The notes beneath the pieces are model-generated. The model searched no databases. It saw only the letters and a program-made list of their open reading frames with translations, and had not been told where the DNA came from. Of a stretch of DNA of 19,359 bases, positions 1 to 19,359 are shown in pieces (position 1 is the first letter of the stretch; every line of letters begins with the position of its first letter). The position numbers and the translations under genes were made by a program. The DNA is from a virus (taxonomy: Duplodnaviria; Heunggongvirae; Uroviricota; Caudoviricetes), in the IMG/VR virus record IMGVR_UViG_2703718791_000007, positions 1 through 19,359 of that record. One strand, given 5' to 3'.

Positions 1-103
1 GTATTCCGAAAAATGGCAACGACGAACGCATTCCGTCTGGCGTCACCGCCACTGGCACGCATCTGCCTTCACGGGGATTTGCAACGATTTGGCCGCCGCC
101 TCA
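1..103. repeat. Left arm of a 103-bp perfect inverted repeat (reverse complement of 261..363)
   Basis: Direct comparison: reverse complement of 261..363 equals 1..103 base for base; identity stops at position 104/260. The arm reaches window position 1, so its true length may be larger. Contains the first 30 codons of a gene I homolog on the plus strand. Confidence 0.9.
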
Positions 104-260
104 GCCTGTATGTGAACACGGCAGCGGAAGCCATCCGTGCCCTGTCGATGCAGATGCCGGGATTCCGCCGCCAGATGAACGAAGGCTGGTACCAGATACG
201 TATTGCTGGTGAGGACACGGCACCGGAGGCGGTGTATGCCCGCCTTCACGAACAACTGGG
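13..260 (+). pseudogene. I: Tail assembly protein I, 5' fragment (codons 1-83) in inverted orientation relative to K; ORF runs on into the inverted arm and ends at 321
   Basis: Plus ORF 13..321 begins MATTNAFRLASPPLARICLHGDLQRFGRRLSLYVNTAAEAIRALSMQMPGFRRQMNEGWYQIRIAGED, collinear with lambda gpI as recalled (MAATHTLPLASPGMARICLYGDLQRFGRRIDLRVKTGAEAIRALATQLPAFRQKLSDGWYQVRIAG). After codon 83 it reads into the inverted arm and loses similarity. Confidence 0.7.
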
Positions 261-992
261 TGAGGCGGCGGCCAAATCGTTGCAAATCCCCGTGAAGGCA
301 GATGCGTGCCAGTGGCGGTGACGCCAGACGGAATGCGTTCGTCGTTGCCATTTTTCGGAATACCTCTCCCGTTTACTCAGTTGTTCAGGCAGATGGTGAA
401 GCAGTTCACCGTTGCCGCAGTAAATGGCGGCATGATTGGCCACCGATGCGCCAAAGCAGCACAGCAGGATATCGCCAGGCTGTGCGGAAGGCAGGGAAAT
501 CCTGTAAAAACCAGTCGCCTCCATATTGTCCAGGTAAAGGTTCTGACCGTTGCGCCACCAGTCATCCTCACGCTCAAAATCCGGCATATCAATTCCCGCC
601 AGATGGTAGGCATCCCGGAACAGCGTGTAACAGTCCGTCACCCCGTGCTCAAAGCGCCGTCCTGTCAGATGTGGCACACAGCGGAATTTATGAATTTCCC
701 CCCGGCAGACCAGCCACCAGAACAGTGCACTTTTTATCTGCAGCCGCCGGTCGGCCTCGCTCAGCCAGGGCAGACCACCGGGATGACTGTGGACCAGTGC
801 CACAATCTCCCCCTGCATCTCTGCCCGCAGCCAGTCTTCCGGTGCGATACGAAAATACGCCTCCGGCTCTGCAGAGATATTCACACAAGGGATATACCGT
901 TCCCCCTCCGGCGTGCTTATCACGAAGCCGCACGACTCCGCAGGCGCACACCGCCGGGCATGCGCCAGAATCGCTGATTCAGTCTGTGTCAT
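246..992 (-). CDS. K: Tail tip assembly protein K (JAMM/MPN metalloprotease motif plus NlpC/P60-like domain)
   Basis: Starts MTQTESAILAHARRCAPAESCGF at ATG 990..992, inside track ORF 246..1253. Contains HSHPGG...SEAD (JAMM-type motif) and DCYTLF (NlpC/P60-type Cys). Strong similarity to lambda gpK as recalled. The last 4 codons lie in the 157-bp segment between the inverted arms. Confidence 0.9.
   Translation of the reverse strand: MTQTESAILAHARRCAPAESCGFVISTPEGERYIPCVNISAEPEAYFRIAPEDWLRAEMQGEIVALVHSHPGGLPWLSEADRRLQIKSALFWWLVCRGEIHKFRCVPHLTGRRFEHGVTDCYTLFRDAYHLAGIDMPDFEREDDWWRNGQNLYLDNMEATGFYRISLPSAQPGDILLCCFGASVANHAAIYCGNGELLHHLPEQLSKRERYSEKWQRRTHSVWRHRHWHASAFTGICNDLAAASPSCS
261..363. repeat. 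Right arm of the 103-bp inverted repeat; carries the K 3' end and an I-type start codon on the minus strand
   Basis: Same comparison as the left arm. On the minus strand, ATG at 349..351 opens MATTNAFRLASPPLARICLHGDLQRFGRRL, which matches the lambda gpI N-terminus as recalled. Confidence 0.9.
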
Positions 993-1002
993 AAAACAGG
1001 AT

Positions 1003-1701
1003 TTACTGCGAAAGTTTATTGATGGAAAGGAAACCGCCAAAATTGACCGCCATGCCGCGCATCTCACACCCGCGCATGCATTTACTGCATCTGTCCTTCC
1101 GGATATCCGTGGTGGGTTTATCGAACTCATCCGCCACAGCCCCGCCCGTGTAACCACACTCATCAGAGCGGTAGGTCCACATACAGGTGTTCGCCAGCAT
1201 GATACGACCGGGAAACAGCGCTCCGTCCGTCTCGGTCGGTGTGGCCAGCACAAACGAGGCCGTCATGGCTGTCAGCTGCGACATCTGCTCCACCACCCAG
1301 CGGTCGCTCAGCTCCTGCTCCGGGTCCGCTTCCGGATTGCCCGCCACAAAATTCACCGCATCCAGAAAACGGGCATACACCCGGCGGCGGACCACCGTGG
1401 CCCCCACCAGGCTCTGCAGGTCCTCCGCCATCCCGGTGACCAGACCAAACAGATTGGACACCGTCAGCGACGGTCTGGCACTGCTGCCCTTCCCGTTCAT
1501 CTCAAAGCCACTGCCGTCAATCGGGTATGCCTGATATTGCCGCCCCTGCCAGGTGACCGCCTCCCCTTTTTCATTCAGCTCATTGCAGAAAAAATACCGC
1601 TCACCACCCTGTACCGTCAGGTCGATTTCCCAGAGTACCACCCGCGGTGACTGCTCTGATTTAACCGACTCGTTCAGACTTTCTTCGTGAATATCCTGCA
1701 T
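1003..1701 (-). CDS. L: Minor tail protein L
   Basis: 232-aa ORF, MQDIHEESLNE...FGGFLSINKLSQ, with the C-terminal Cys cluster; collinear with lambda gpL as recalled. Its ATG overlaps the M stop as ATGA. Confidence 0.92.
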   Translation of the reverse strand: MQDIHEESLNESVKSEQSPRVVLWEIDLTVQGGERYFFCNELNEKGEAVTWQGRQYQAYPIDGSGFEMNGKGSSARPSLTVSNLFGLVTGMAEDLQSLVGATVVRRRVYARFLDAVNFVAGNPEADPEQELSDRWVVEQMSQLTAMTASFVLATPTETDGALFPGRIMLANTCMWTYRSDECGYTGGAVADEFDKPTTDIRKDRCSKCMRGCEMRGMAVNFGGFLSINKLSQ

Positions 1702-2030
1702 CAGTTCACCACCTGCTTAAACTCGGCACTGAATTCAACCCGCAGCATGCGAACCCGTGATGACCAGGCGGCACAGGTCACCTTTATCTGCCGCTAGGCA
1801 TAAGGCGGTGTCCACAGAAACGCCTTCCAGCCACCGTGCTCTGCCAGGAATGCCTCCAGATGTCGGGCCTCCTCCCGGGTCACGGAAAGCGTCACACGGT
1901 ATGTTTTCAGGTCAGCATTCAGCCCCGCCGCCATACGCTGCGAATACCCGTCACCAAAACGCACTTCACGCACCGATGGCTGCGAGTTCACCTCCATATC
2001 CGGCTTCACTTTCCAGCGAAATGTTTTCAT
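1701..2030 (-). pseudogene. M: Minor tail protein M interrupted by an in-frame TAG at 1794..1796 (codon 79 of 109)
   Basis: ORF 1794..2030 gives MKTFRWKVKP...FLWTPPYA then TAG. Continuing in the same frame gives RQIKVTCAAWSSRVRMLRVEFSAEFKQVVN then TGA at 1701..1703, matching the lambda gpM C-terminus as recalled (YEWRQIKVTCAKWSSRVSMLRVEFSAEFEQVVN). The TAG sits where lambda has Trp. Confidence 0.85.
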
Positions 2031-4582
2031 CGCCTGCCTCCGGAAAAGACGCCGCCATCACGCATCTGCGCCTGAATCTCATCCTGCGCCCCCTTGCGGG
2101 CCATGTCATACACCGCCTTCATCAGCTGCGGCCCCGCCTGTCCGTTGGTGCCGTCGTTCTGAATCACCACGTGATTGTTCTGATTAAAATTAATGCCTTC
2201 CGTCCGCCGCATCTGCGCCGGACTTCCGGCACCGCCGACATAACCGCCATCCGCATACCCCCGCATCAGACGGTACAGGTTGCCGACACCAATCCGGCTG
2301 GTTGCCTCCTTCGTGAAGACAAATTCACCACGGTGAACAATCCCCGCTGGCTCATATTTGTCGCCGGTTCCCGTAAATCCTCCGGTTGCAAAATGGAATT
2401 TCGCCGCAGCGGCCTGAATGGCTGTACCGCCTGACGCGGATGCGCCGCCACCAACAGCCCCGCCAATGGCACTACCGATACTCCCGACTATCCCCACCAT
2501 CGCCTGCTTCAGAAAAATCTCTGTCAGCATGGAGAGCACAGAACGGGTGAAACCACGCCAGTTCTGTTCGCTGCCGGTCAGCATCGCTGCCATATTCTGT
2601 GCAATACCGTCAAAGGTCTGCGTGGCCACGCTTTTAACCTGCGAAAAACTGTCCGTCGCACTTTCTGCCCACTCGCCCCAGCCGGACTTCAGACCGGCCA
2701 TCCAGCTTCCACGAAGCTGCTCCTCCGCAGACCAGGTGTTCTTCAGTGCAGATGTGGCCTTCGCCAGCGCATCCGGATTATCACCGTACACGTCACGAAG
2801 GCGCTGCTCTTCCGACTCCCGCTGCGCCTGACGGTCGGTGAGGCCGCGGGCTTTTGCGCTGATGGCTGCCTGCTTCGCGCTCTGCTGCTGTTCAAACCGC
2901 GCCGCCTGCTGTGCCAGCTCATTCAGCCGTTTCTGGTGTTCAACCTTGTCGCCAAGCTCAGCCAGCTGGCGTTTGTACTCCAGCGTCTCTTTCTCATGGG
3001 CCAGCAGGGATTTTTCCTGCTCAGATAACTGGCGTTTCGTGGCAGCCTCTTTCAGGACCGCATACTGATTTTCCGCTTTCCATAAATCGCGACGCTGCTG
3101 GCTGATTTTCTCATTCGCACCGCTGTGTTTTTCCAGCGTCCGGAGCTCGGTTTCAAGCGCCAGCAGGGCTGCATGCGCCCGGTCTTCCTGGCGCTCACCG
3201 GCAGACACCTTCACAGCAGATGGCTTTTTCAGCGTCGACTCATAATCCTTTTTCGCCGCCGCCATCAGCGTGTTGTAATCCGCCTGCAGGATTTTCCCGT
3301 CCTTCAGTGCCTTGTTCAGTTCTTCCTGACGGGCGGTATATTTCTCCAGCGGCGTCTGCAGCCGTTCGTAAGCTTTCTGCGCCTCTTCGGTATATTTCAG
3401 CCGTGACGCTTCAGTATCGCTCTGCTGCTGCGCATTTTTGTCCTGTTGACTCTGCTGTTCAGCCTTCTTTCTCGCGGCTTCAAGCGCAAGACGGGCCTTT
3501 TCACGATCATCCCAGTAACGCGCCCGCGCTTCATCGTTAACAAAATAATCATCCTTGCGCAGACTCCAGATGTCGTCCGCTTTCTTAAACGCAGCCTCTG
3601 CCTTAATCAGCATCTCCTGAGCGGTATCAGGACGACCAATATCCAGCACCGCATCCCACATGGATTTGAATGCCCGTGCTGTCCTGTCTGCCCAGGTCTC
3701 TAGCGTACCCATGTTCTCTTTCAGGCGGCGGGTCTGGTCATCAAATCCTTTCGTCGCGGCCTCGTTCGCCGCCTGCAATGCCCCGGCTTCATCGCCGGAA
3801 CGCTGCAACTGAGCAACATACGCAATCTGCTCCGCCGTCACGTTATGGAACTGGCGTGCCATCGCTGTCAGCCCTGACGTCGGGTCTGTGGTCAGCTTCC
3901 CGAAGGCTTCAGCGACCTTGTCCACCTCCACGCCGGATGCAGAGGAGAAACGCGCCACACTCTGGCTGATGGATGCAATCTGAGCCTCACCGCTTACTCC
4001 CGCCTTAACCAGTGCGCTGAGTGACTCGCTGGTCTGGTTAAACGTCAGCCCTGCCGCCTGCCCGGCTCTGGACAGGACCAGCATACGATCTGCCGTCAGA
4101 CCCGACTGATTGCCGGAAAGGACCAGCGTTTTGTTGAAATCGGACAGGGTTGAGTTGCCCTGATACCAGGCATACGCCAGCGCACCTGTCGCCACCGCCA
4201 GCGAGGTGACCCCGACCATCGGCAGGGTGATCGCACCGGCAAGCCCCCTGAACATGGGGATCATCCCGCCGAAGGAGTCCTTCACCTGACCGCCCTGTTG
4301 CAGCAGGATCAGCCAGGGATTCTGACCACCGGCAAGCTGCGTGGCGATATCCGTAAACTGTGCGGGCAGGGTTCGCATGGCCGCTTTATACTGCCCGACG
4401 GAAATCCCGGCTTTTTGTGCAGCCAGCGCCTGACGACTCAGGTTCTGCTCAACGACACCGGCGGTTTTTCTGGCGTCAGTCTCCAGTCCGGAAAAATGAC
4501 GCCTTACCCGGCTCATCTGCTCATCGAAACGGACCGCATCCAGACTCAGGTCAATAACAAGATCACCAACCGGCTGGGACAT
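2027..4582 (-). CDS. H: Tail tape measure protein H
   Basis: 851-aa ORF MSQPVGDLVIDLSLDAVRFDEQ...GGVFSGGRR, near-collinear with lambda gpH as recalled; long coiled-coil middle region and Gly-rich C-terminal region. Confidence 0.95.
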   Translation of the reverse strand: MSQPVGDLVIDLSLDAVRFDEQMSRVRRHFSGLETDARKTAGVVEQNLSRQALAAQKAGISVGQYKAAMRTLPAQFTDIATQLAGGQNPWLILLQQGGQVKDSFGGMIPMFRGLAGAITLPMVGVTSLAVATGALAYAWYQGNSTLSDFNKTLVLSGNQSGLTADRMLVLSRAGQAAGLTFNQTSESLSALVKAGVSGEAQIASISQSVARFSSASGVEVDKVAEAFGKLTTDPTSGLTAMARQFHNVTAEQIAYVAQLQRSGDEAGALQAANEAATKGFDDQTRRLKENMGTLETWADRTARAFKSMWDAVLDIGRPDTAQEMLIKAEAAFKKADDIWSLRKDDYFVNDEARARYWDDREKARLALEAARKKAEQQSQQDKNAQQQSDTEASRLKYTEEAQKAYERLQTPLEKYTARQEELNKALKDGKILQADYNTLMAAAKKDYESTLKKPSAVKVSAGERQEDRAHAALLALETELRTLEKHSGANEKISQQRRDLWKAENQYAVLKEAATKRQLSEQEKSLLAHEKETLEYKRQLAELGDKVEHQKRLNELAQQAARFEQQQSAKQAAISAKARGLTDRQAQRESEEQRLRDVYGDNPDALAKATSALKNTWSAEEQLRGSWMAGLKSGWGEWAESATDSFSQVKSVATQTFDGIAQNMAAMLTGSEQNWRGFTRSVLSMLTEIFLKQAMVGIVGSIGSAIGGAVGGGASASGGTAIQAAAAKFHFATGGFTGTGDKYEPAGIVHRGEFVFTKEATSRIGVGNLYRLMRGYADGGYVGGAGSPAQMRRTEGINFNQNNHVVIQNDGTNGQAGPQLMKAVYDMARKGAQDEIQAQMRDGGVFSGGRR

Positions 4583-5434
4583 ATCTCACACCTCCGGAAA
4601 TCCCCGCTGAAGCCATCATTAATGCGGCATCATCCACCATGACATCCGCCACATCCGCAGACGATAAAATCTCACGCCCACCGTCCCCACCAAACCGTAC
4701 GCCTCCGGCAAGTCCTGCCGCTTTCTGCATCAGCATTTTTTCCTCATCCGGCATCTCCGTCTGCGCTTCCTCACGCCGGGGGGCAAGCAGACTGAAATCA
4801 GAGGGATGCATATCCGGATCGCAAAAAAACAGGCTGAGTACGGCGTACGTCAGCCCGGAAAAATGCATATCCAGTTGGGTATCGAGAAAATAATGCGTAC
4901 GGTAAAAATGTCGCCAGTCGGCATATTCGGTGGATGTCATCCCGGCAAGCATGGCGCGCCAGTCAGGCCTCCCCATCTCACGCGCCAGTCTGAGGGCAAA
5001 ATTCAGCTCGCCGTCGAAGACTTTCCCGCAGAAAAATCATCATCAGTCAGCGCGTTATTTTTCGCCACTTCGGTGCTGTCAGTATCCGCATGAACAGCCC
5101 CGCTCATCCCGGACAGACACAACACCACATCTTCCGCCCGGGCAATGGCATCCGCAGGCCAGGTGGTGAGCACCTCCTGTTCGATCTGCATCACAGCCTC
5201 ATTCATTGACGGTGATGCCGTTTTCTGCGGATGGTTATGCCACAGGGACATCGCCACCAGAAACGCGCCGGTTCTGACGAGATCTTCCACGCTTACCTGC
5301 AGGTTGCCGCTGGATTCTGCCTGTTCTGCACGCCGTTTCAGGAGGGCAAGATGCTCAATACGCTGCAGCGCAGACAATTCGGAAAGCGTGACGGACACAC
5401 CGTTATATTCAAATTGTTCTGTTTTCAGAAACAT
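4563..5434 (-). CDS. T: Tail assembly chaperone G-T fusion made by programmed -1 frameshift; T-specific part 4563..5020
   Basis: T frame (track ORF 4563..4976) is contiguous with G through a -1 shift at the heptamer G GGA AAG (minus strand, 5021..5027), the same slippery sequence as lambda G/GT. The post-shift reading VFDGELNFALRLAREMGRPDWRAMLAG joins the T ORF. Confidence 0.85.
5003..5434 (-). CDS. G: Tail assembly chaperone G
   Basis: 143-aa ORF MFLKTEQFEYNGVSVTLSELSALQRIEHLALL...; GGAGG Shine-Dalgarno upstream; slippery heptamer 18 nt before its stop. Similar to lambda gpG as recalled. Confidence 0.9.
   Translation of the reverse strand: MFLKTEQFEYNGVSVTLSELSALQRIEHLALLKRRAEQAESSGNLQVSVEDLVRTGAFLVAMSLWHNHPQKTASPSMNEAVMQIEQEVLTTWPADAIARAEDVVLCLSGMSGAVHADTDSTEVAKNNALTDDDFSAGKSSTAS
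5021..5027 (-). other. Slippery heptamer G GGA AAG for the G to G-T -1 ribosomal frameshift
   Basis: Plus-strand ctttccc at 5021..5027 is GGGAAAG on the minus strand, in the X XXY YYZ register of the G frame (…TCT GCG GGA AAG TCT…). Confidence 0.85.
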
Positions 5435-5447
5435 GTATTACCTCCGT

Positions 5448-6200
5448 TTACCCTGCAGCGCCCGCTTCAGTAACGGTGACTTCAGCCACTGCGGCGAACT
5501 GACCATTTCCGCTCACCACAGGGATCTGCACCTTACCTGTCGCCACGCCGTTTACCGTAATTGTCATATCTTTCACACTAATGGTGGCTTTCGACGGATC
5601 GGCGGAAACCGCTCTGAACGTCTTGTCTGTTGCACTTTCCGGCTCAAAAGAAACCGTCAGGGTGGTTGTTTTCCCTTTTGCCACCGTACCGGATGTCGGC
5701 GTCACCTTAATCGCACTGACCGGCGTAATTTTGCTGCGTTCTTCCGCTACAGAAGGTTTACCCACGTTAGTGACTTTCACCGTGCGGGTGATCACTTCTT
5801 TCGCCGTCACGGCCTTACCGATACTGCTGACCCAGCCACGAAACACATCCACCGTGCCATTCGGAAAACGGATTTTATAGGCCCGGACATCGCCGCTTTC
5901 AAACCAGCCTATAAGCCCTTTCTGGCCTTCCTCTCCCGGTTTCCAGGCCAGCGTAAAACTGGTATCACCTGCAGATTTCTGCCCCTGCCCGGTCGCGGTC
6001 CAGTCCGCGTCTTCATCATCCAGGTAGTTATCATCGTAGGATTCTGCCGTCATCTCGCCCGGCGTCAGATCCTTCACCTTAGCCAGTCGCTGCCAGTCAT
6101 CGTCTGACAACGGGTTTGCATAAGCGTCACCCTGACCGTTGTAAACCCACAGAGTGGTACCGGCACCTTTTACCGGCTCAAGGGGATTTGGTGTTGCCAT
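5448..6200 (-). CDS. V: Major tail tube protein V with C-terminal Ig-like domain
   Basis: 250-aa [34 protein letters not shown]...; position between U and G and size match lambda gpV; the C-terminal ~90 aa look like a Big_2-type Ig-like domain. Confidence 0.9.
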
Positions 6201-6207
6201 ATCGTCC

Positions 6208-6603
6208 TCACATCTCGTATGTAATGGAATAAGTCAGATCTGCAGAACTCCATAACGCCATATCGTCATCACGACGATACTCATAGCCCTGCGTAACCAT
6301 CGTGGTAATCAGTCCTGCCAGTGCCGGGATCGCGGTCATCGCCGGGTAAATCCGGCTTTCCATCCACTGATCAAGCTCTGAATCCGGTACCTGTGCCGGT
6401 AAAAACACCTCAATATGCAGCGTGGCCCGCCAGGTATCTGCATCCAGCTCTTCACCGGTATACTCTGCATCCGTCAGATAAACCGCGATCGCAGGAAAAT
6501 CCTCTTCGTCAAAAACAACGGGGCGACCATCAAACAGCGTCGCCCCGTGTTCATGCTGCTCGAGTGCATCCAGCACTGCGGCACGAATGTCAGTGTGTTT
6601 CAT
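6208..6603 (-). CDS. U: Tail terminator protein U
   Basis: 131-aa [36 protein letters not shown]...[10 protein letters not shown], collinear with lambda gpU as recalled. Confidence 0.92.
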
Positions 6604-7133
6604 CGTTTTATTGCAATCCTCAGTTGTTGTTTCAGCGCGGATGCCAGTTCTTTAGGCAGGCGTTCACGCCGGATACGGTCAACATTCTCATCAAATGCCT
6701 GTTTCAGTGGGGCCGCCATCGGGATTTTCACCACATCAATGGGGTAACGGTTTTTCCCGGCCACACGCTGCATGACATGCCAGCGACCATTTTTTAATCG
6801 CTGAATAAATGCCCGCTGATACCGATGCTGACCGGCTTTAAGTATGCTGTCCGGACGACGCCCCGGCATCCTGATCCCCAGCTTAATCACAGGGAGATCA
6901 CCGCGGTTAACGATAATTCTGGCATTCGGATTTCTGACCGTCGCCCGTTTCAGTCTGGACCGTTCCTTAACCAGTTTCCGGCGAACCTTTGTCTCCCGGG
7001 CAACCTGTGATGAAGACTGATTAATCGCCGTTGTGGCCACGCGGTTAATGGCCATTGCTGAAGCCGCCGGAATGGCGTTTTTACGAACCCGACTCAGATT
7101 ATCAATCGCCTGCTCAAGCCCTTTTATCGCCAT
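6600..7133 (-). CDS. Z: Tail completion protein Z
   Basis: 177-aa ORF MAIKGLEQAIDNLSRV...[22 protein letters not shown], matching lambda gpZ as recalled; 4-nt overlap with U. Confidence 0.9.
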   Translation of the reverse strand: MAIKGLEQAIDNLSRVRKNAIPAASAMAINRVATTAINQSSSQVARETKVRRKLVKERSRLKRATVRNPNARIIVNRGDLPVIKLGIRMPGRRPDSILKAGQHRYQRAFIQRLKNGRWHVMQRVAGKNRYPIDVVKIPMAAPLKQAFDENVDRIRRERLPKELASALKQQLRIAIKR

Positions 7134-7148
7134 AATTTCACCCTGCGT

Positions 7149-7502
7149 TTATCGTCGCCGGTTAACGGCGGGTGGTTTCCCACGGTTGAGCCAGAGATAA
7201 CAGCTGCCCCCGTCATCCGGAGAAACACGATCCACCCAGAACGTCTCACCATTAATGGTCAGCGTGTCACCACGCCGCACAGCACGAACCGTATCCGTCC
7301 GCACAAATAATGACGGGCTGCTTCCTTCAATACGGACCCCGCCACCGGCAAACCCCAGCGACTCCGGATCGTCAAAAACCCCCTGAACTTCGCTGCCACA
7401 CTGTGCCCCCGAGGTGAACTGCGCACAGAGCCCCATCACTTCAACAATCGTGCTGTCCACCCCGGCGAGGGCAGCATCAAAGGCATTCTGAAAATCACGC
7501 AT
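7149..7502 (-). CDS. FII: Head-tail connector protein FII
   Basis: 117-aa ORF MRDFQNAFDAALAGV...DRVSPDDGGSCYLWLNRGKPPAVNRRR; the C-terminal half is nearly identical to lambda gpFII as recalled. Confidence 0.9.
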   Translation of the reverse strand: MRDFQNAFDAALAGVDSTIVEVMGLCAQFTSGAQCGSEVQGVFDDPESLGFAGGGVRIEGSSPSLFVRTDTVRAVRRGDTLTINGETFWVDRVSPDDGGSCYLWLNRGKPPAVNRRR

Positions 7503-7878
7503 GCTCAGCCGTTCCGTGCTGTATCATGGCTGTCGCCAGTGGTGATGGCACCAGAACACGCATGCCCCGGTACGTCAGTTCAACGGGACGGCCTGTCTCC
7601 GGGCAATACCCCATCACATGCAGGCATTTCCGCACACGGACCGCTTTAACATCATCCGTAGCATCAGTGTTGTGCAACTGCTCACCATCGTCTGTGTGAT
7701 TTTGCTCAGGCCCGCTCTCATCACCAGGCATAATGCCCTCCCGGGAAGCAGCAAGCTCCTCTTCCCACTCAGACACACGTTGCGCAATATCCGCAGCACT
7801 CCCCGACATATCCGCCTCGCGCCCCAGCAGGCCAGCCAGTTGACGAAGACGTTTCTGATTTTCTTCTTTTGTTGCCAT
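7495..7878 (-). CDS. FI: DNA packaging protein FI-like
   Basis: ATG at 7876..7878 with AGGGGG Shine-Dalgarno; product MATKEENQKRLRQLAGLL...; sits in the lambda FI position between E and FII. Sequence similarity to lambda gpFI is weak, so the call is positional. The track ORF start at 7926 is an upstream non-ATG extension. Confidence 0.65.
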   Translation of the reverse strand: MATKEENQKRLRQLAGLLGREADMSGSAADIAQRVSEWEEELAASREGIMPGDESGPEQNHTDDGEQLHNTDATDDVKAVRVRKCLHVMGYCPETGRPVELTYRGMRVLVPSPLATAMIQHGTAEHA

Positions 7879-7893
7879 ATCAGCCCCCTGTGA

Positions 7894-7921
7894 AAAAAGA
7901 CACGGGGGCATTTCGCCCCCG
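7894..7921 (-). terminator. Intrinsic-terminator-like hairpin plus U-tract between capsid gene E and FI
   Basis: Plus gggggc(atttc)gccccc at 7904..7920 gives a 6-7 bp GC stem; on the minus-strand transcript it is followed by UGUCUUUUUU (plus aaaaaa 7894..7899). Confidence 0.45.
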
Positions 7922-7929
7922 CTCACGGA

Positions 7930-16533: not shown

Positions 16534-17024
16534 GTATCCTCCGGATAATAAAAAGCCAGCTTAGTGCACTGAGTGCGGATATATTCCTGCGCCCCTTCCA
16601 GCTGCTTCTGCATTGTCATCAACCGTTCTCTGAGGATGAAATAATCCCGTTCAGCGGTGTCTGCCAGTCGGGGGCCGGTTGCATTATCCACGCTGGAGGT
16701 GCCGGTGGCTTCACGCACGGTACCGGGGCAGGTGGCGTTGACCCGCAGGCGCTTACGACCAGCGGCAACATCAGCGCGCAGAGTTTCAATTTCAGCTCTC
16801 GCATCGGCTAATTCCTTCGTGTATCTGGCATCAAGCGCAGCGACATCTCGCTGGCGCTGCTGCATGTCAGTAATAGTGGCATTCGCCAGTTTCAGCTCAC
16901 TGACTTTTTTATCGCGCTGCGCTTTGTAGGTGATGGCGTTATCGCGGTAATGATTCAGCCCCAGACTAAGCACACCACAGGCTACCAGCAGGACAATAAT
17001 CACCACACACAGAACACGGTTCAT
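16530..17024 (-). CDS. Rz: i-spanin Rz
   Basis: From ATG 17022..17024: [78 protein letters not shown]…[26 protein letters not shown], closely matching lambda Rz as recalled. The track ORF start at 17108 is an upstream non-ATG extension. Confidence 0.93.
16619..16804 (-). CDS. Rz1: o-spanin Rz1, lipoprotein embedded in the +1 frame of Rz
   Basis: [61 protein letters not shown]: lipobox VSAC, Pro-rich mature part, and near-identity to lambda Rz1 over [27 protein letters not shown] as recalled. Confidence 0.9.
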
Positions 17025-17242
17025 ATCACCACCAACGGATTGCCCAGACCAGAACAGCAATGGCCACAATACGAATGGCAAATGCCATTGCCCGAATAAG
17101 TTCAGCACTCATCTTTTTAAAGTTCACGATTTCAGCGCAATGACCAGTTTTGCCAGCCCATACAGCATCGGAGACACAGCAATACCAACAGCCACCCACT
17201 TAATAGCAAAAGCCAGCGCTCTGCTGATGTCATCAGTCACTG

Positions 17243-17374
17243 TCACCCCAGCAGCCCCGACGAAGACAACATCACCCAGGCGAGGGACAGAAAAAGAGCA
17301 ACCAGCATTAGTGAAAATGAAATACCGACAATCACACACAGGACCTTTGCCGGCGTTATGAGTTTGTCTGACAT
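17243..17374 (-). CDS. Candidate small membrane protein, 43 aa, in the R-Rz spacer
   Basis: Hand-translated MSDKLITPAKVLCVIVGISFSLMLVALFLSLAWVMLSSSGLLG; AAGGGG about 5 nt upstream of the ATG. A second hydrophobic reading (…DDISRALAFAIKWVAVGIAVSPMLYGLAKLVIALKS) follows in another frame. Confidence 0.35.
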   Translation of the reverse strand: MSDKLITPAKVLCVIVGISFSLMLVALFLSLAWVMLSSSGLLG

Positions 17375-17543
17375 AGCTACCCCTTAATTGCCACAATTAA
17401 CTGGGATACTACCCATAAAAAAGGGATGCTCCAGACCAGCAAAAATTTCCAGTTTGGTAATTGACTAATCATGAGTCGCAACTCCCTAATCAGTTTGCTA
17501 AAATCAATCAAGGCAGCCTCCCATAGCTTACTGCCATAAAAAC

Positions 17544-17580
17544 AAAACCCCGCTTGCTGCCAACAAACGGGGTTTTTACT
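17544..17580. terminator. Bidirectional intrinsic-terminator-like hairpin about 90 nt downstream of the endolysin gene
   Basis: aaaaCCCCG(cttgctgccaacaaa)CGGGGttttt: GC stem flanked by an A-run on one side and a T-run on the other, so both strands have stem plus U-tract. Confidence 0.55.
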
Positions 17581-17666
17581 TTTATTCACTTACGTTTCGC
17601 CAGTTCGCAGGATTTCATGTTATCCGCCCGCGTGGCCATGCCTTATTTTTCAGCAAAATATTCTGC

Positions 17667-18200
17667 TTATCTGTCGATACCCCAGCACGCCAGCGCGCTC
17701 TCCTGGTCACGACGGGATACCTGACCGTAGCAGTTGTTTGAACGAATACGGCAGTCTCTGCCAGCGTCCTTAATCCACCAGCGAATCGCCTCACATGCTC
17801 CCCTGCGATCACCAGCATTAATTCGTCTGTAAAACGTCGACGGGAAACACTTACCGGGACCAATGTTGTACGGACAGAATGACGCGATCCCCGCTTTCTG
17901 GGGTTCGGTCAATGGCACTTTGATGTTTTTCTCCACCCATGCCAGCGCCTTATCACGTTCGATGGCGTTAACCTGGTCGCATTTCTCCTTCGACAACTTC
18001 ATGCCCGGGACGACAGGTTTACCATCCACCAGAATGGCACCGCGACAGATGGTCCAGATACCCGCGCCATCACGGTATGCCGTGGTGTGGTTACCTTCCT
18101 TTTCATCCAGAAACTGGTCGAGAATGTCAGGCGCAGGCGCACCAGCGGCAATCAGCGCCAGAACGGCAGCCGACAGGCCGTATTTGATTTTGGTGTTCAT
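17667..18200 (-). CDS. R: SAR endolysin (phage lysozyme, T4/P21-type)
   Basis: 177-aa ORF with weakly hydrophobic Gly/Ala-rich N-terminal segment (YGLSAAVLALIAAGAPA) typical of a signal-anchor-release domain, followed by the catalytic E…D…T spacing (EGNHTTAYRDGAGIWT). Resembles the E. coli Qin prophage lysozyme as recalled. Confidence 0.9.
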   Translation of the reverse strand: MNTKIKYGLSAAVLALIAAGAPAPDILDQFLDEKEGNHTTAYRDGAGIWTICRGAILVDGKPVVPGMKLSKEKCDQVNAIERDKALAWVEKNIKVPLTEPQKAGIASFCPYNIGPGKCFPSTFYRRINAGDRRGACEAIRWWIKDAGRDCRIRSNNCYGQVSRRDQESALACWGIDR

Positions 18201-18236
18201 GGATATATTAAATATTCAGCCGCTGTCCCTGGCCCA

Positions 18237-18794
18237 CTAAATACGCACTTTAAGATAAGTCAGCCCCGGATGAAGCCAGTAAGCCGGCACTTTTTTAAAG
18301 GGTGGAGTATTAAAATCACGAAGAAGAGCCTCCCGCACAATTGCATCCTTATCAGCACCACTGGCCAGCGCTTCAATCTCAGCGGCTACCTGAAGATATC
18401 CCATGCAACGGCCAACGCGCTTCATCAGCCCCTGCTTTTTATTGTTCTTCAGGTAATCAATGGCAAATTCAATGAGCTCCTCACTGTGCTGGTGCGATGG
18501 AGGTGTTACTTTCCCATTTTCTGAGATGGTTATTTTCCCAGCATCACCGGATACAACAAAGGATGGCCGGTTACACTCCCATTCCAGCTCACTGAAATTA
18601 TCATTATGAATACTGAAACACTCTGAGAGATTTCTGCTCATCACTTTCCGACAATAATCGTCAAACGCAGCAAACTGCTCATCGCGGCGTTTTTTTTCAT
18701 CTTCAGAAGGCATCAGCGTCGACAGTTTTTTATTCAGTTCAGCAATTTCATTTTCCAGACGACTGAAGCGCTGATTCATTTCTTCATGGTTCAT
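18237..18794 (-). CDS. Hypothetical soluble protein, ~185 aa, between holin and endolysin genes
   Basis: ORF MNHEEMNQRFSRLENEIAELNKKLSTLMPSEDEKKRRDEQFAAF… (ATG 18792..18794; GTG 18795..18797 abuts the S stop). Predicted coiled-coil N-terminus, no hydrophobic segments. Local base composition looks more AT-rich than the tail genes. Family not recognised. Confidence 0.7.
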   Translation of the reverse strand: MNHEEMNQRFSRLENEIAELNKKLSTLMPSEDEKKRRDEQFAAFDDYCRKVMSRNLSECFSIHNDNFSELEWECNRPSFVVSGDAGKITISENGKVTPPSHQHSEELIEFAIDYLKNNKKQGLMKRVGRCMGYLQVAAEIEALASGADKDAIVREALLRDFNTPPFKKVPAYWLHPGLTYLKVRI

Positions 18795-18797
18795 CAC

Positions 18798-19013
18798 CTA
18801 ATCTCCCCGGGCAGCCTTGCGACGGTCCTCTTTAATTTTGAAATACAGGTTAGTCAGATACGTCAGCAGGCCAAACAGCAGACTCCCCAGCACACCTATC
18901 GCCACCCACTGGGACGGAGAGACTTTGTCCAGCAGCTGCAATAACCAGTATCCCGTCCCCACCGCTGACGTGGTGTATGACACACCTGTTGTGATTTTTT
19001 CCATCTGGTACAT
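18798..19013 (-). CDS. S: Pinholin, phage 21 S-type class II holin with dual-start motif
   Basis: 71-aa [74 protein letters not shown]; strongly resembles S21 and E. coli essD as recalled; Met1/Met4 dual start; two transmembrane segments. Confidence 0.92.
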
Positions 19014-19048
19014 ACCCCGTCTCCCGTTATCCGGAAGCTCACAACATG

Positions 19049-19078
19049 AAAAAGGCCAGCAGCTGTTTACTGATGGCC
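19049..19078 (-). terminator. Weak hairpin plus U-tract immediately upstream of S, possibly a tR'-like late terminator
   Basis: Minus strand GGCCATCAG-TAAACAG-CTGCTGGCC followed by TTTTTC, 30-35 nt before the S ATG; the stem has one mismatch. Confidence 0.3.
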
Positions 19079-19089
19079 CTGACTCCCCG

Positions 19090-19359
19090 TTACAGCATCA
19101 TGACCGATTCGGGTTGAGGTTCAGTCGCATCGGCGACCGGTGATTCAGGCTGAACTTCACCGCTCTCTGCGGTGGTATCTCCCGCTTCAGTCGGTGGCTC
19201 TGCCTGTACACCAAGCAGCTCATCCAGAATGGCATCAACCTCTGCATCAAGACGCGCTTCCAGGTTATGGCGAAGTTTTTGTTTCAGTGCGCTCAGGACT
19301 TCTTCAGAGCGCAGGACTTCCTTCACTGCCTCAGCAGTGACCAGGGATGTAATTTCTGA
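19090..19359 (-). CDS. 3' part of an ORF running off the window edge; acidic Pro/Glu-rich C-terminus; function unknown
   Basis: The frame is open from the window edge to the stop at 19090: …[89 protein letters not shown]. No homolog recognised; coding status uncertain. Confidence 0.35.

Follow-up and report, generated by a model that had tools for sequence, protein, structure and literature searches.

The lysis cassette and its accessory gene

The stretch of DNA analysed here, called the window in the following, comprises 19,359 nucleotides (positions 1 to 19,359 of the Caudoviricetes record IMGVR_UViG_2703718791_000007 in IMG/VR). It matches a lambda-like prophage of E. coli OkiPb01713 with 99.86% identity over 13.1 kb and is closed by a lysis cassette on the minus strand, in which S, an accessory open reading frame, R, a 642-nt stretch with small open reading frames, and Rz with the embedded Rz1 follow each other in this order (Table 1). 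The Met1/Met4 dual start is present in S. R begins with MNTKIKYGLSAAVLALIAAGAPAP, a hydrophobic, SAR-like N-terminus, and has E35/D44/T50 in place. The initial annotation, which had been made from the sequence alone, took these two neighbours for a pinholin and a SAR endolysin, in accordance with the Pfam matches PF04971 and PF00959, which make them a P21-type pinholin and a SAR-type lysozyme, and the coordinates it gave for an open reading frame right behind the S stop and 36 nt ahead of R proved to be exact.

Table 1. Coordinates of the lysis cassette features in the window and, in the last row, of a neighbouring gene found at other loci
Feature	Position	Strand	Basis and remarks
S, class II (P21-type) holin, 71 aa	18798..19013	-	PF04971 Phage_holin_2_1 'P21 holin S', E 8.5e-33; phrog_9876 and phrog_20 (holin)
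Shine-Dalgarno GGGGAG, within 3' end of S	18803-18808	-	8 nt before ATG, 5 nt before GTG
Accessory gene, BC form, 185 aa + TAG stop	18237..18794	-	ORF list; PHROG 1085; dN/dS
Module B, residues 1-58, two-helix coiled coil, MNHEEMNQRFSRLENEIAELNKKLS...RRDEQFAAFDDYC	18621..18794	-	AlphaFold; phrog_2091, phrog_15975
Module C, residues 69-185 (~117 residues)	18240..18590	-	Alignments, AlphaFold
Spacer between accessory gene and R, 36 nt	18201..18236	-	AT-rich near R; no Shine-Dalgarno for R
R, SAR-type phage lysozyme, 177 aa	17667..18200	-	Phage_lysozyme PF00959, E 2.8e-24
Small ORF, 70 aa	17377..17589	-	phrog_6632 (unknown); TM-like C-terminus
Small ORF, 43 aa	17243..17374	-	TM-like
Rz spanin	16530..17024	-	PF03245, E 1.2e-50; ORF list; RefSeq annotation; cassette complete with Rz
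Rz1, inside Rz	16619-16804	-	Lipobox LVVSAC
phrog_1853 copies, other loci	L007:2230-2544(+), L005:2228-2542(+), L008:4722-5039(-), L178:495-812(-), L040/L049/L050

The stop codon of the accessory gene (TAG, 18237-18239) is separated by a gap of 36 nt from the start codon of R (ATG, 18198-18200), and the same 36-nt spacer is also present behind longer inserts of 931 and 1029 nt, which belong to the ABC class described below. At the other end the stop codon of S (TAG, 18798-18800) is directly abutted by an in-frame GTG at 18795-18797, which as an alternative start would yield a protein of 186 aa (open reading frame 18237..18797). The ATG at 18792-18794, located 3 nt further on, is the start used by RefSeq, where the identical protein (WP_001364645.1, 100%) is labelled 'hypothetical protein' and also occurs in the OkiPb01713 record.

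Comparison of the accessory open reading frame with 14 non-identical homologues by the Nei-Gojobori method yielded dN/dS ratios of 0.18-0.39 (345-555 aligned bases). DNA resembling it was found in 811 of 5,426 complete E. coli genomes (~15%), many of them Shiga-toxin strains, and in 278 of these the match covers at least 80% of the reading frame. Because of these low ratios and the wide occurrence of matching DNA in E. coli genomes, the open reading frame is a genuine gene under purifying selection. Its GC content of 44.8% (GC3 43.5%) is below that of S (52.3%), R (54.9%), and the whole window (54.1%), so the impression of AT-rich cargo which the initial annotation had conveyed was correct.

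Consensus scans of the minus strand near the accessory gene yielded no sigma-70-like site and no credible terminator, the sole hairpin (18278-18261) being weak, intragenic, and devoid of a U-tract, which fits the earlier proposal of co-transcription with the lysis genes. The protein contains four cysteines and has no transmembrane or signal segment (maximal 19-residue Kyte-Doolittle mean 0.75; GRAVY -0.64). As the gene lacks a promoter and terminator of its own, has its start at the S stop behind a good Shine-Dalgarno sequence, and belongs to a Q-dependent late operon, its product is predicted to be made late from the lysis transcript, together with the lysis proteins and in the cytoplasm.

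A second variable slot is located between R and Rz (17025-17666, minus strand), with 46% GC and small hydrophobic open reading frames. RefSeq calls further peptides of 51 and 28 aa there in addition to the two reading frames of Table 1, and in BP-4795 and phage 86 the anti-repressor gene ant is found instead. The small membrane peptides of this slot could be modulators of lysis. A strong terminator-like hairpin (17544-17576, minus strand), with a 15-bp stem (AAAACCCCG...CGGGGTTTT) followed by GTTTTTATGG, lies ~90 nt past the R stop and before Rz within the late operon, where it overlaps the start of the 70-aa reading frame.

Architecture and distribution of a modular protein family

No search placed the accessory protein in a well-characterised family with a housekeeping role in lysis. 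There was no meaningful match in Pfam (E <= 0.1), NCBIfam, or PADLOC; NCBIfam matches at E ~0.05 are short coiled-coil noise, and none of the defence profiles of PADLOC-DB 2.0 matched at E <= 0.1. Neither Pfam nor PHROG gave a holin-type match, and a transmembrane or SAR segment as in membrane lysis regulators is missing. The protein belongs to PHROG 1085 (E 7.8e-113, 377.7 bits), a family annotated with unknown function. Its residues 1-185 align with positions 117-296 of the 296 positions of the profile, the N-terminal third of which is without counterpart in the accessory protein.

The initial annotation had pointed to a DUF1327 gene, ydfR, at the same position in the Qin prophage of E. coli and had been cautious about assigning the open reading frame to that family. 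The position is right, the order in Qin being essQ-ydfR-rrrQ, and so was the caution. PF07041, the DUF1327 profile with a gathering score of 25 bits, did not match the accessory protein in the Pfam search to E <= 0.1 and was matched with 138-152 bits by the controls (the Stx2_95 protein and P0033), and a BLASTP comparison with K-12 YdfR produced no alignment. The idea that the C-terminal domain might be a diverged DUF1327 was rejected as well, as hhalign against DUF1327-like N-terminal domains returned a probability of 0.2%. A link beyond the reach of the initial annotation is that there are longer proteins which start with DUF1327, and that the accessory protein is a homologue of what follows in them, the coiled coil and the C-terminal part.

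Alignment of the annotated proteins from the slot between S and R yielded three modules, which are designated A (DUF1327 plus linker), B (coiled coil), and C. In Stx-type and related lambdoid phages the slot proteins comprise a 114-aa A-only protein in BP-4795 ('YdfR family'), a 169-aa AB protein in PhiR12_1 ('DUF1327 containing'), a 268-aa protein in phage 86 ('YdfR family'), and a 329-aa ABC protein in Stx2_95 (BCI50300.1, hypothetical); hypothetical proteins of 213 aa and 161 aa are further found there in phage records, and homologues of 287 and 296 aa carry PF07041. Module B, with the core ...IEKLEN..ELNKKLS...RRDEQFAAFYDYC, is common to the accessory protein and to the DUF1327-containing AB and ABC proteins. 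In module C the conserved residues are H103, GRCMGxLQxAAEIE (128-141), PPFK (164-167), and W173..PG..YLK. In this alignment the accessory protein is shown to consist of B+C, the short form of a modular A+B+C family, without A.

Residues 31-185 of the accessory protein are 92% identical to the Stx2_95 protein, and its own N-terminus, MNHEEMNQRFSRLENEIA, replaces the DUF1327 domain and the linker. At the DNA level the window and Stx2_95 are ~95% identical on both sides, but 522 nt of Stx2_95, which encode A and a different B, are exchanged for a 5'-terminal 90 nt of the accessory reading frame. The difference between the two forms is, judged from this comparison, a mosaic exchange and not a recent simple deletion.

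With close E. coli homologues only, AlphaFold predicted the C domain with a pLDDT below 50, and relatives from Salmonella and metagenomes were then added. The resulting model has a mean pLDDT of 71.6, with 77-93 across residues 71-160 and values below 50 in the linker (residues 54-71), so that confidence in it is moderate overall. It starts with two helices (residues 3-27 and 31-60; pLDDT 78-86 over the first 20 residues), and a heptad pattern is formed by L13/I17/L20/L24/L27. These helices, together with the absence of a transmembrane segment, agree with the soluble coiled-coil protein that had been expected from the sequence. The C part is modelled as a three-stranded sheet (79-97) and helices at 101-117, 123-144, 151-162, and 178-184. 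A surface motif is conserved in it, but motifs indicative of catalysis or binding were not recognised, and the structure libraries searched contained no match to its fold. A PhoU homologue, the best match when PDB sequences were searched with a profile of the C-domain alignment, was dismissed as a relative of the C domain since its E value of 0.044 is not credible.

The C-domain family is narrow, confined to prophages of Escherichia, Shigella, and Salmonella and to metagenome contigs. When 1.84 billion cluster representatives were searched exhaustively by HMM, only 42 matches at E <= 1e-3 were returned, and three of these (P0145, P0147, P0158) are large repeat proteins, discarded because summing over repeats had produced artefactual matches. 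In a set of 185,579 species-representative genomes three loci only were detected (Escherichia sp., Shigella flexneri, and E. coli), and only 5 of 50,697 sequenced phage records, representing three distinct phages, contain the C domain.

The distant relatives, 33-43% identical in C, come from Salmonella enterica and metagenome contigs. Their N-terminal domain resembles DUF1327 weakly, with E values of 0.004-0.04 that miss the threshold; a coiled coil and C come after it, and one of the relatives (P0126) aligns over 95% of its own length with gp05 of phage 86. As the distant relatives keep an A-like domain along with B and C, ABC is probably the ancestral form, and the BC form has arisen more than once (P0161, P0163, P0165). 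A search of sequenced phages and IMG/VR with three distant homologues (P0126, P0144, P0134) added one new locus (L176), with A and B only.

In Salmonella the gene order is Q, hicBA (minus), the homologue, a 105-aa gene (minus), holin, lysozyme, methyltransferase, and Rz. On three metagenome contigs the homologue precedes, by 0.5-1 kb, a holin (PF04971 or PF16080) or a GH108 endolysin, and the A-B-only relative lies upstream of yet another pair of holin and endolysin. The lysis genes vary in type, yet the family keeps its place at the head of the lysis region, which fits a conserved position in lambdoid phages rather than a specific partnership with the pinholin and the SAR endolysin.

Some further genes were observed at these loci. 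One Salmonella enterica locus (L008, AANWXQ010000010.1) harbours an N6/N4 DNA methyltransferase gene between endolysin and Rz and a hicA/hicB toxin-antitoxin pair between Q and the family homologue, which is more cargo inside the lysis cassette. At two unrelated distant loci (L176:3523-3921 and L181:200-484) the gene immediately ahead of the family member is of the DUF4406 type (nucleoside deoxyribosyltransferase-like), a hint that the local gene order upstream of the lysis cassette may be conserved. Immediately behind the C-domain gene, and in convergent orientation, there is a conserved gene of ~105 aa (phrog_1853, a family annotated as unknown; 40-77% identity) in phage 86, in Stx2_12E129, at three IMG/VR loci, in Salmonella prophages, and on one metagenome contig, and two other distant loci have a DUF1883 gene at the equivalent antisense position. 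As far as gene order can tell, the C-domain gene and phrog_1853 may form a two-gene cassette; in the window the phrog_1853 gene was sought and is absent.

Occupied and empty slots between S and R

Eighty loci were fetched from IMG/VR with the S protein, all with an S at least 93% identical. Six of the contigs ended before R, and the state of the slot was counted on the remaining 74. It was empty in 31 of these, with a gap of -1 to 16 nt between S and R. The others carried A only (20/74), AB (3/74), ABC (11/74), or BC (9/74), six of the latter with a gap of ~600 nt like the window. The gene had been regarded as an insertion into a canonical cassette from the beginning, and this view was corroborated: 43 of the 74 loci are occupied and 31 are empty, and every class of insert has 44-47% GC as compared to 52-55% in S and R, thus combining presence/absence with deviating composition, two features of a moron.

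Among the empty loci, 22 pair S with a different SAR endolysin of the phage 21 type, and nine have an R of the same family as in the window. In these nine, R begins 1-4 nt past the S stop and is 67-93% identical to that of the window; eight range from 87 to 93%, and the value of 67% (L060) extends over 43 residues only. With S and an R of the same family as direct neighbours in nine empty loci, the insert is dispensable for the S/R pair, and as far as gene content can show it the accessory gene is not required for the S/R/Rz lysis machinery.

In the 22 loci with the other endolysin (L023-L088) S is 94-97% identical, and the endolysin (MSPSLRKAVAAAIGGGAVAIASV...) is ~30% identical to R of the window, with its start overlapping the S stop (ATAATG). 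Near-identical S proteins are found with two types of R, so the same holin serves two lineages of endolysins.

The converse survey started from the C domain and retrieved 82 loci. Both flanks were available for 79 Escherichia/Shigella copies, and all of these have S upstream and R downstream. The 79 loci comprise 43 ABC and 36 BC forms. BC proteins of 185 and 213 aa form clusters of 205-338 member sequences.

These numbers bear on the question whether the accessory gene might be decaying, as what remains of an ABC gene after loss of its N-terminal part, without a function of its own. The A domain of the likely ancestral architecture is indeed missing, and two of the nine BC loci from IMG/VR (L056, L068) gave interrupted matches. 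On the other side the dN/dS ratios of 0.18-0.39 hold over the whole length and include comparisons of BC with BC, the start is intact and equipped with a Shine-Dalgarno sequence, and the BC form is abundant both in the sequence clusters and in the surveyed loci (36/79). A remnant is therefore considered extremely improbable.

Another finding was that the insert takes over what appears to be the ribosome-binding site of R. In the nine empty loci with the same R family, R starts with MSRKLRYG, and its Shine-Dalgarno sequence is the GGGGAG at the end of S, the junction reading GGGGAGAGTAAGCTG-ATG. When the slot is occupied (loci L014-L093), GGGGAG serves the inserted gene and R starts with MNTKIKYG or MNAKIRYG, preceded by AT-rich DNA without a Shine-Dalgarno sequence (...AATATATCC-ATG or ...GATAAATATCC-ATG). 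As the Shine-Dalgarno sequence is taken by the insert and the start of R is altered, insertion changes the translation-initiation region and the first codons of R.

In the Qin prophage of K-12 the lysozyme gene rrrQ starts within ydfR, the two genes having 4 nt in common. According to a screen cited in a study of RNase E interactors, ydfR scored as important for envelope integrity (PMC13232886). Replacement of ydfR by a cassette could act via altered expression of rrrQ and not via loss of YdfR.

An explanation to be weighed at this point is that the accessory product might be a cytoplasmic regulator of lysis timing, which would bind the charged cytoplasmic C-terminal tail of the pinholin or affect the release of the SAR endolysin from the membrane, by a logic resembling that of T4 RIII. 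It is favoured by the position between S and R in 79/79 Escherichia/Shigella copies, by the homologues of 33-43% identity, which are always located ~0.5-1 kb or less from a holin, and by the coupling of the start to the S stop. An occupied slot also strips R of its Shine-Dalgarno sequence and alters its first codons, which amounts at least to an effect in cis on the expression of the lysis genes. However, near-identical S genes work beside R when the slot is empty, and a dual-start antiholin is already contained in S. The distant homologues accompany PF04971 or PF16080 holins and PF00959 or GH108 endolysins, which speaks against a specific partner, and additional genes generally cluster in a hotspot between Q and the lysis genes. 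Furthermore, no similarity to known lysis regulators was detected in Pfam, PHROG, and NCBIfam. A regulator of lysis timing is conceivable but unlikely.

Possible function and relation to known systems

The tentatively preferred reading is that of a late-expressed cytoplasmic accessory gene in a polymorphic S-R slot, the product of which acts on a host target. Its descriptive part is nearly certain, its mechanistic part weak. Translation would proceed on the lysis transcript, within the Q-dependent late operon of a lambda-like prophage, and would begin at the gene's own start right after the S stop, presumably with the Shine-Dalgarno sequence that serves R in phages with an empty slot. The product may oligomerise through the short leucine-zipper-like B module, the C domain may act by binding a partner, and the protein would most likely address a host target at a late stage of the lytic cycle. 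For the family as a whole, targeting could be the task of A, and B-C could serve as effector or for assembly. The BC copy might then act alone or pair via B with paralogues that carry A and are frequent in E. coli.

Searches of the literature turned up nothing on the accessory protein itself and, on YdfR, only the 2026 paper on RNase E interactors. [quoted passage not shown] These residues correspond to module A. The accessory protein may share the pathway of the A domain, i.e. binding of RNase E and possibly of RNA, and RNA decay is the sole candidate with data behind it. As the BC copy is devoid of A, the link to RNase E may not apply to it, and the constant position near the lysis genes would be equally compatible with a role related to lysis. 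A bolder version, which must be called quite improbable, is that the S-R slot houses modular late factors for host takeover, in which DUF1327 would target RNase E, the coiled coil would join the parts, C would be an effector of a kind so far undescribed, and BC would work in trans, by itself or paired through the coiled coil with DUF1327-bearing paralogues of co-resident prophages. If this were true, the lambdoid prophages in a single STEC cell would pool parts of one device for RNA decay or lysis control.

The initial annotation had also considered a defence or superinfection-exclusion factor, and anti-defence cargo can be added to this group. The AT-richness, the presence/absence polymorphism, and the shuffled modules are what might be seen with such cargo, as is the convergent ~105-aa phrog_1853 gene behind the C-domain gene in some relatives. 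This option has been weakened by the lack of a PADLOC match and of a promoter of its own, without which expression of the accessory gene in the lysogen is not expected, and the phrog_1853 partner is absent from the window. Anti-defence genes are usually early, and late expression would be poor timing both for them and for an exclusion function expressed in the lysogen. Cargo of this kind is judged distinctly unlikely.

The same segment of the late operon holds stx and nanS-p-type genes in related phages, and a DUF6645/nanS-like pseudogene is found upstream in the OkiPb01713 record. By analogy with the NanS-p esterases, the accessory protein, which is soluble and has no signal peptide, might be released by lysis and act outside the cell. 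Yet signatures of enzymes or toxins as well as fold matches are missing, four cysteines and a coiled coil do not suggest an extracellular protein, and the A domain which is fused to its modules in relatives binds a cytoplasmic enzyme. A released protein is thus very improbable. Nothing so far points to an unusual mechanism, and the reading of a late cytoplasmic protein with a host target is retained as the working view.

The accessory gene shares its transcript with genes that set the timing of lysis, which in turn governs the release of Shiga toxin. If the family tunes lysis or the late decay of host RNA, the yields of toxin and phage would be affected; if it has no measurable effect, the gene is one more conserved hypothetical. 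Apart from this, the junction of holin and endolysin is a recombination slot with shuffled combinations of three modules. The gene was already known as a hypothetical one (PHROG 1085 and the RefSeq WP entry), and the slot was known for genes of the ydfR type. New are the recognition that the open reading frame is a BC form, without DUF1327, in a family of three modules, the shuffling in the slot, the C domain without a family or fold relative, and the takeover of the ribosome-binding site of R.

T4 RIII is a cytoplasmic antiholin cofactor which takes part together with RI in the lysis inhibition of a class III holin. Like RIII, the accessory protein is small, soluble, and cytoplasmic, and its gene adjoins that of a holin, but the two have neither sequence nor fold in common. 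A classical moron is an autonomous unit expressed from the prophage, in which the gene is flanked by its own promoter and terminator. With morons and late cargo such as bor, lom, stx, and nanS-p the accessory gene shares the character of an extra gene, the deviating GC content, the presence in some and absence from other phages, and the location in the region from Q to the lysis genes. Unlike the classical moron of Hendrix and colleagues it showed neither a promoter nor a terminator of its own in consensus scans and is part of the lysis transcript. The PHROG 1085 members of Stx2_95 (BCI50300.1) and phage 86 (gp05) occupy the same genomic slot, although the accessory protein covers only positions 117-296 of their profile. 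The YdfR/DUF1327 genes, ydfR of Qin and ORF47 of BP-4795, are located in the same slot between a P21-type holin and a lysozyme, the order in BP-4795 being S-ORF47-R, and they are likewise AT-rich inserts which start right after the S stop. The accessory protein differs from YdfR in lacking the DUF1327 domain, to which the reported binding of RNase E maps, and it is related to this group through the longer DUF1327 proteins, which run on into its B and C modules.
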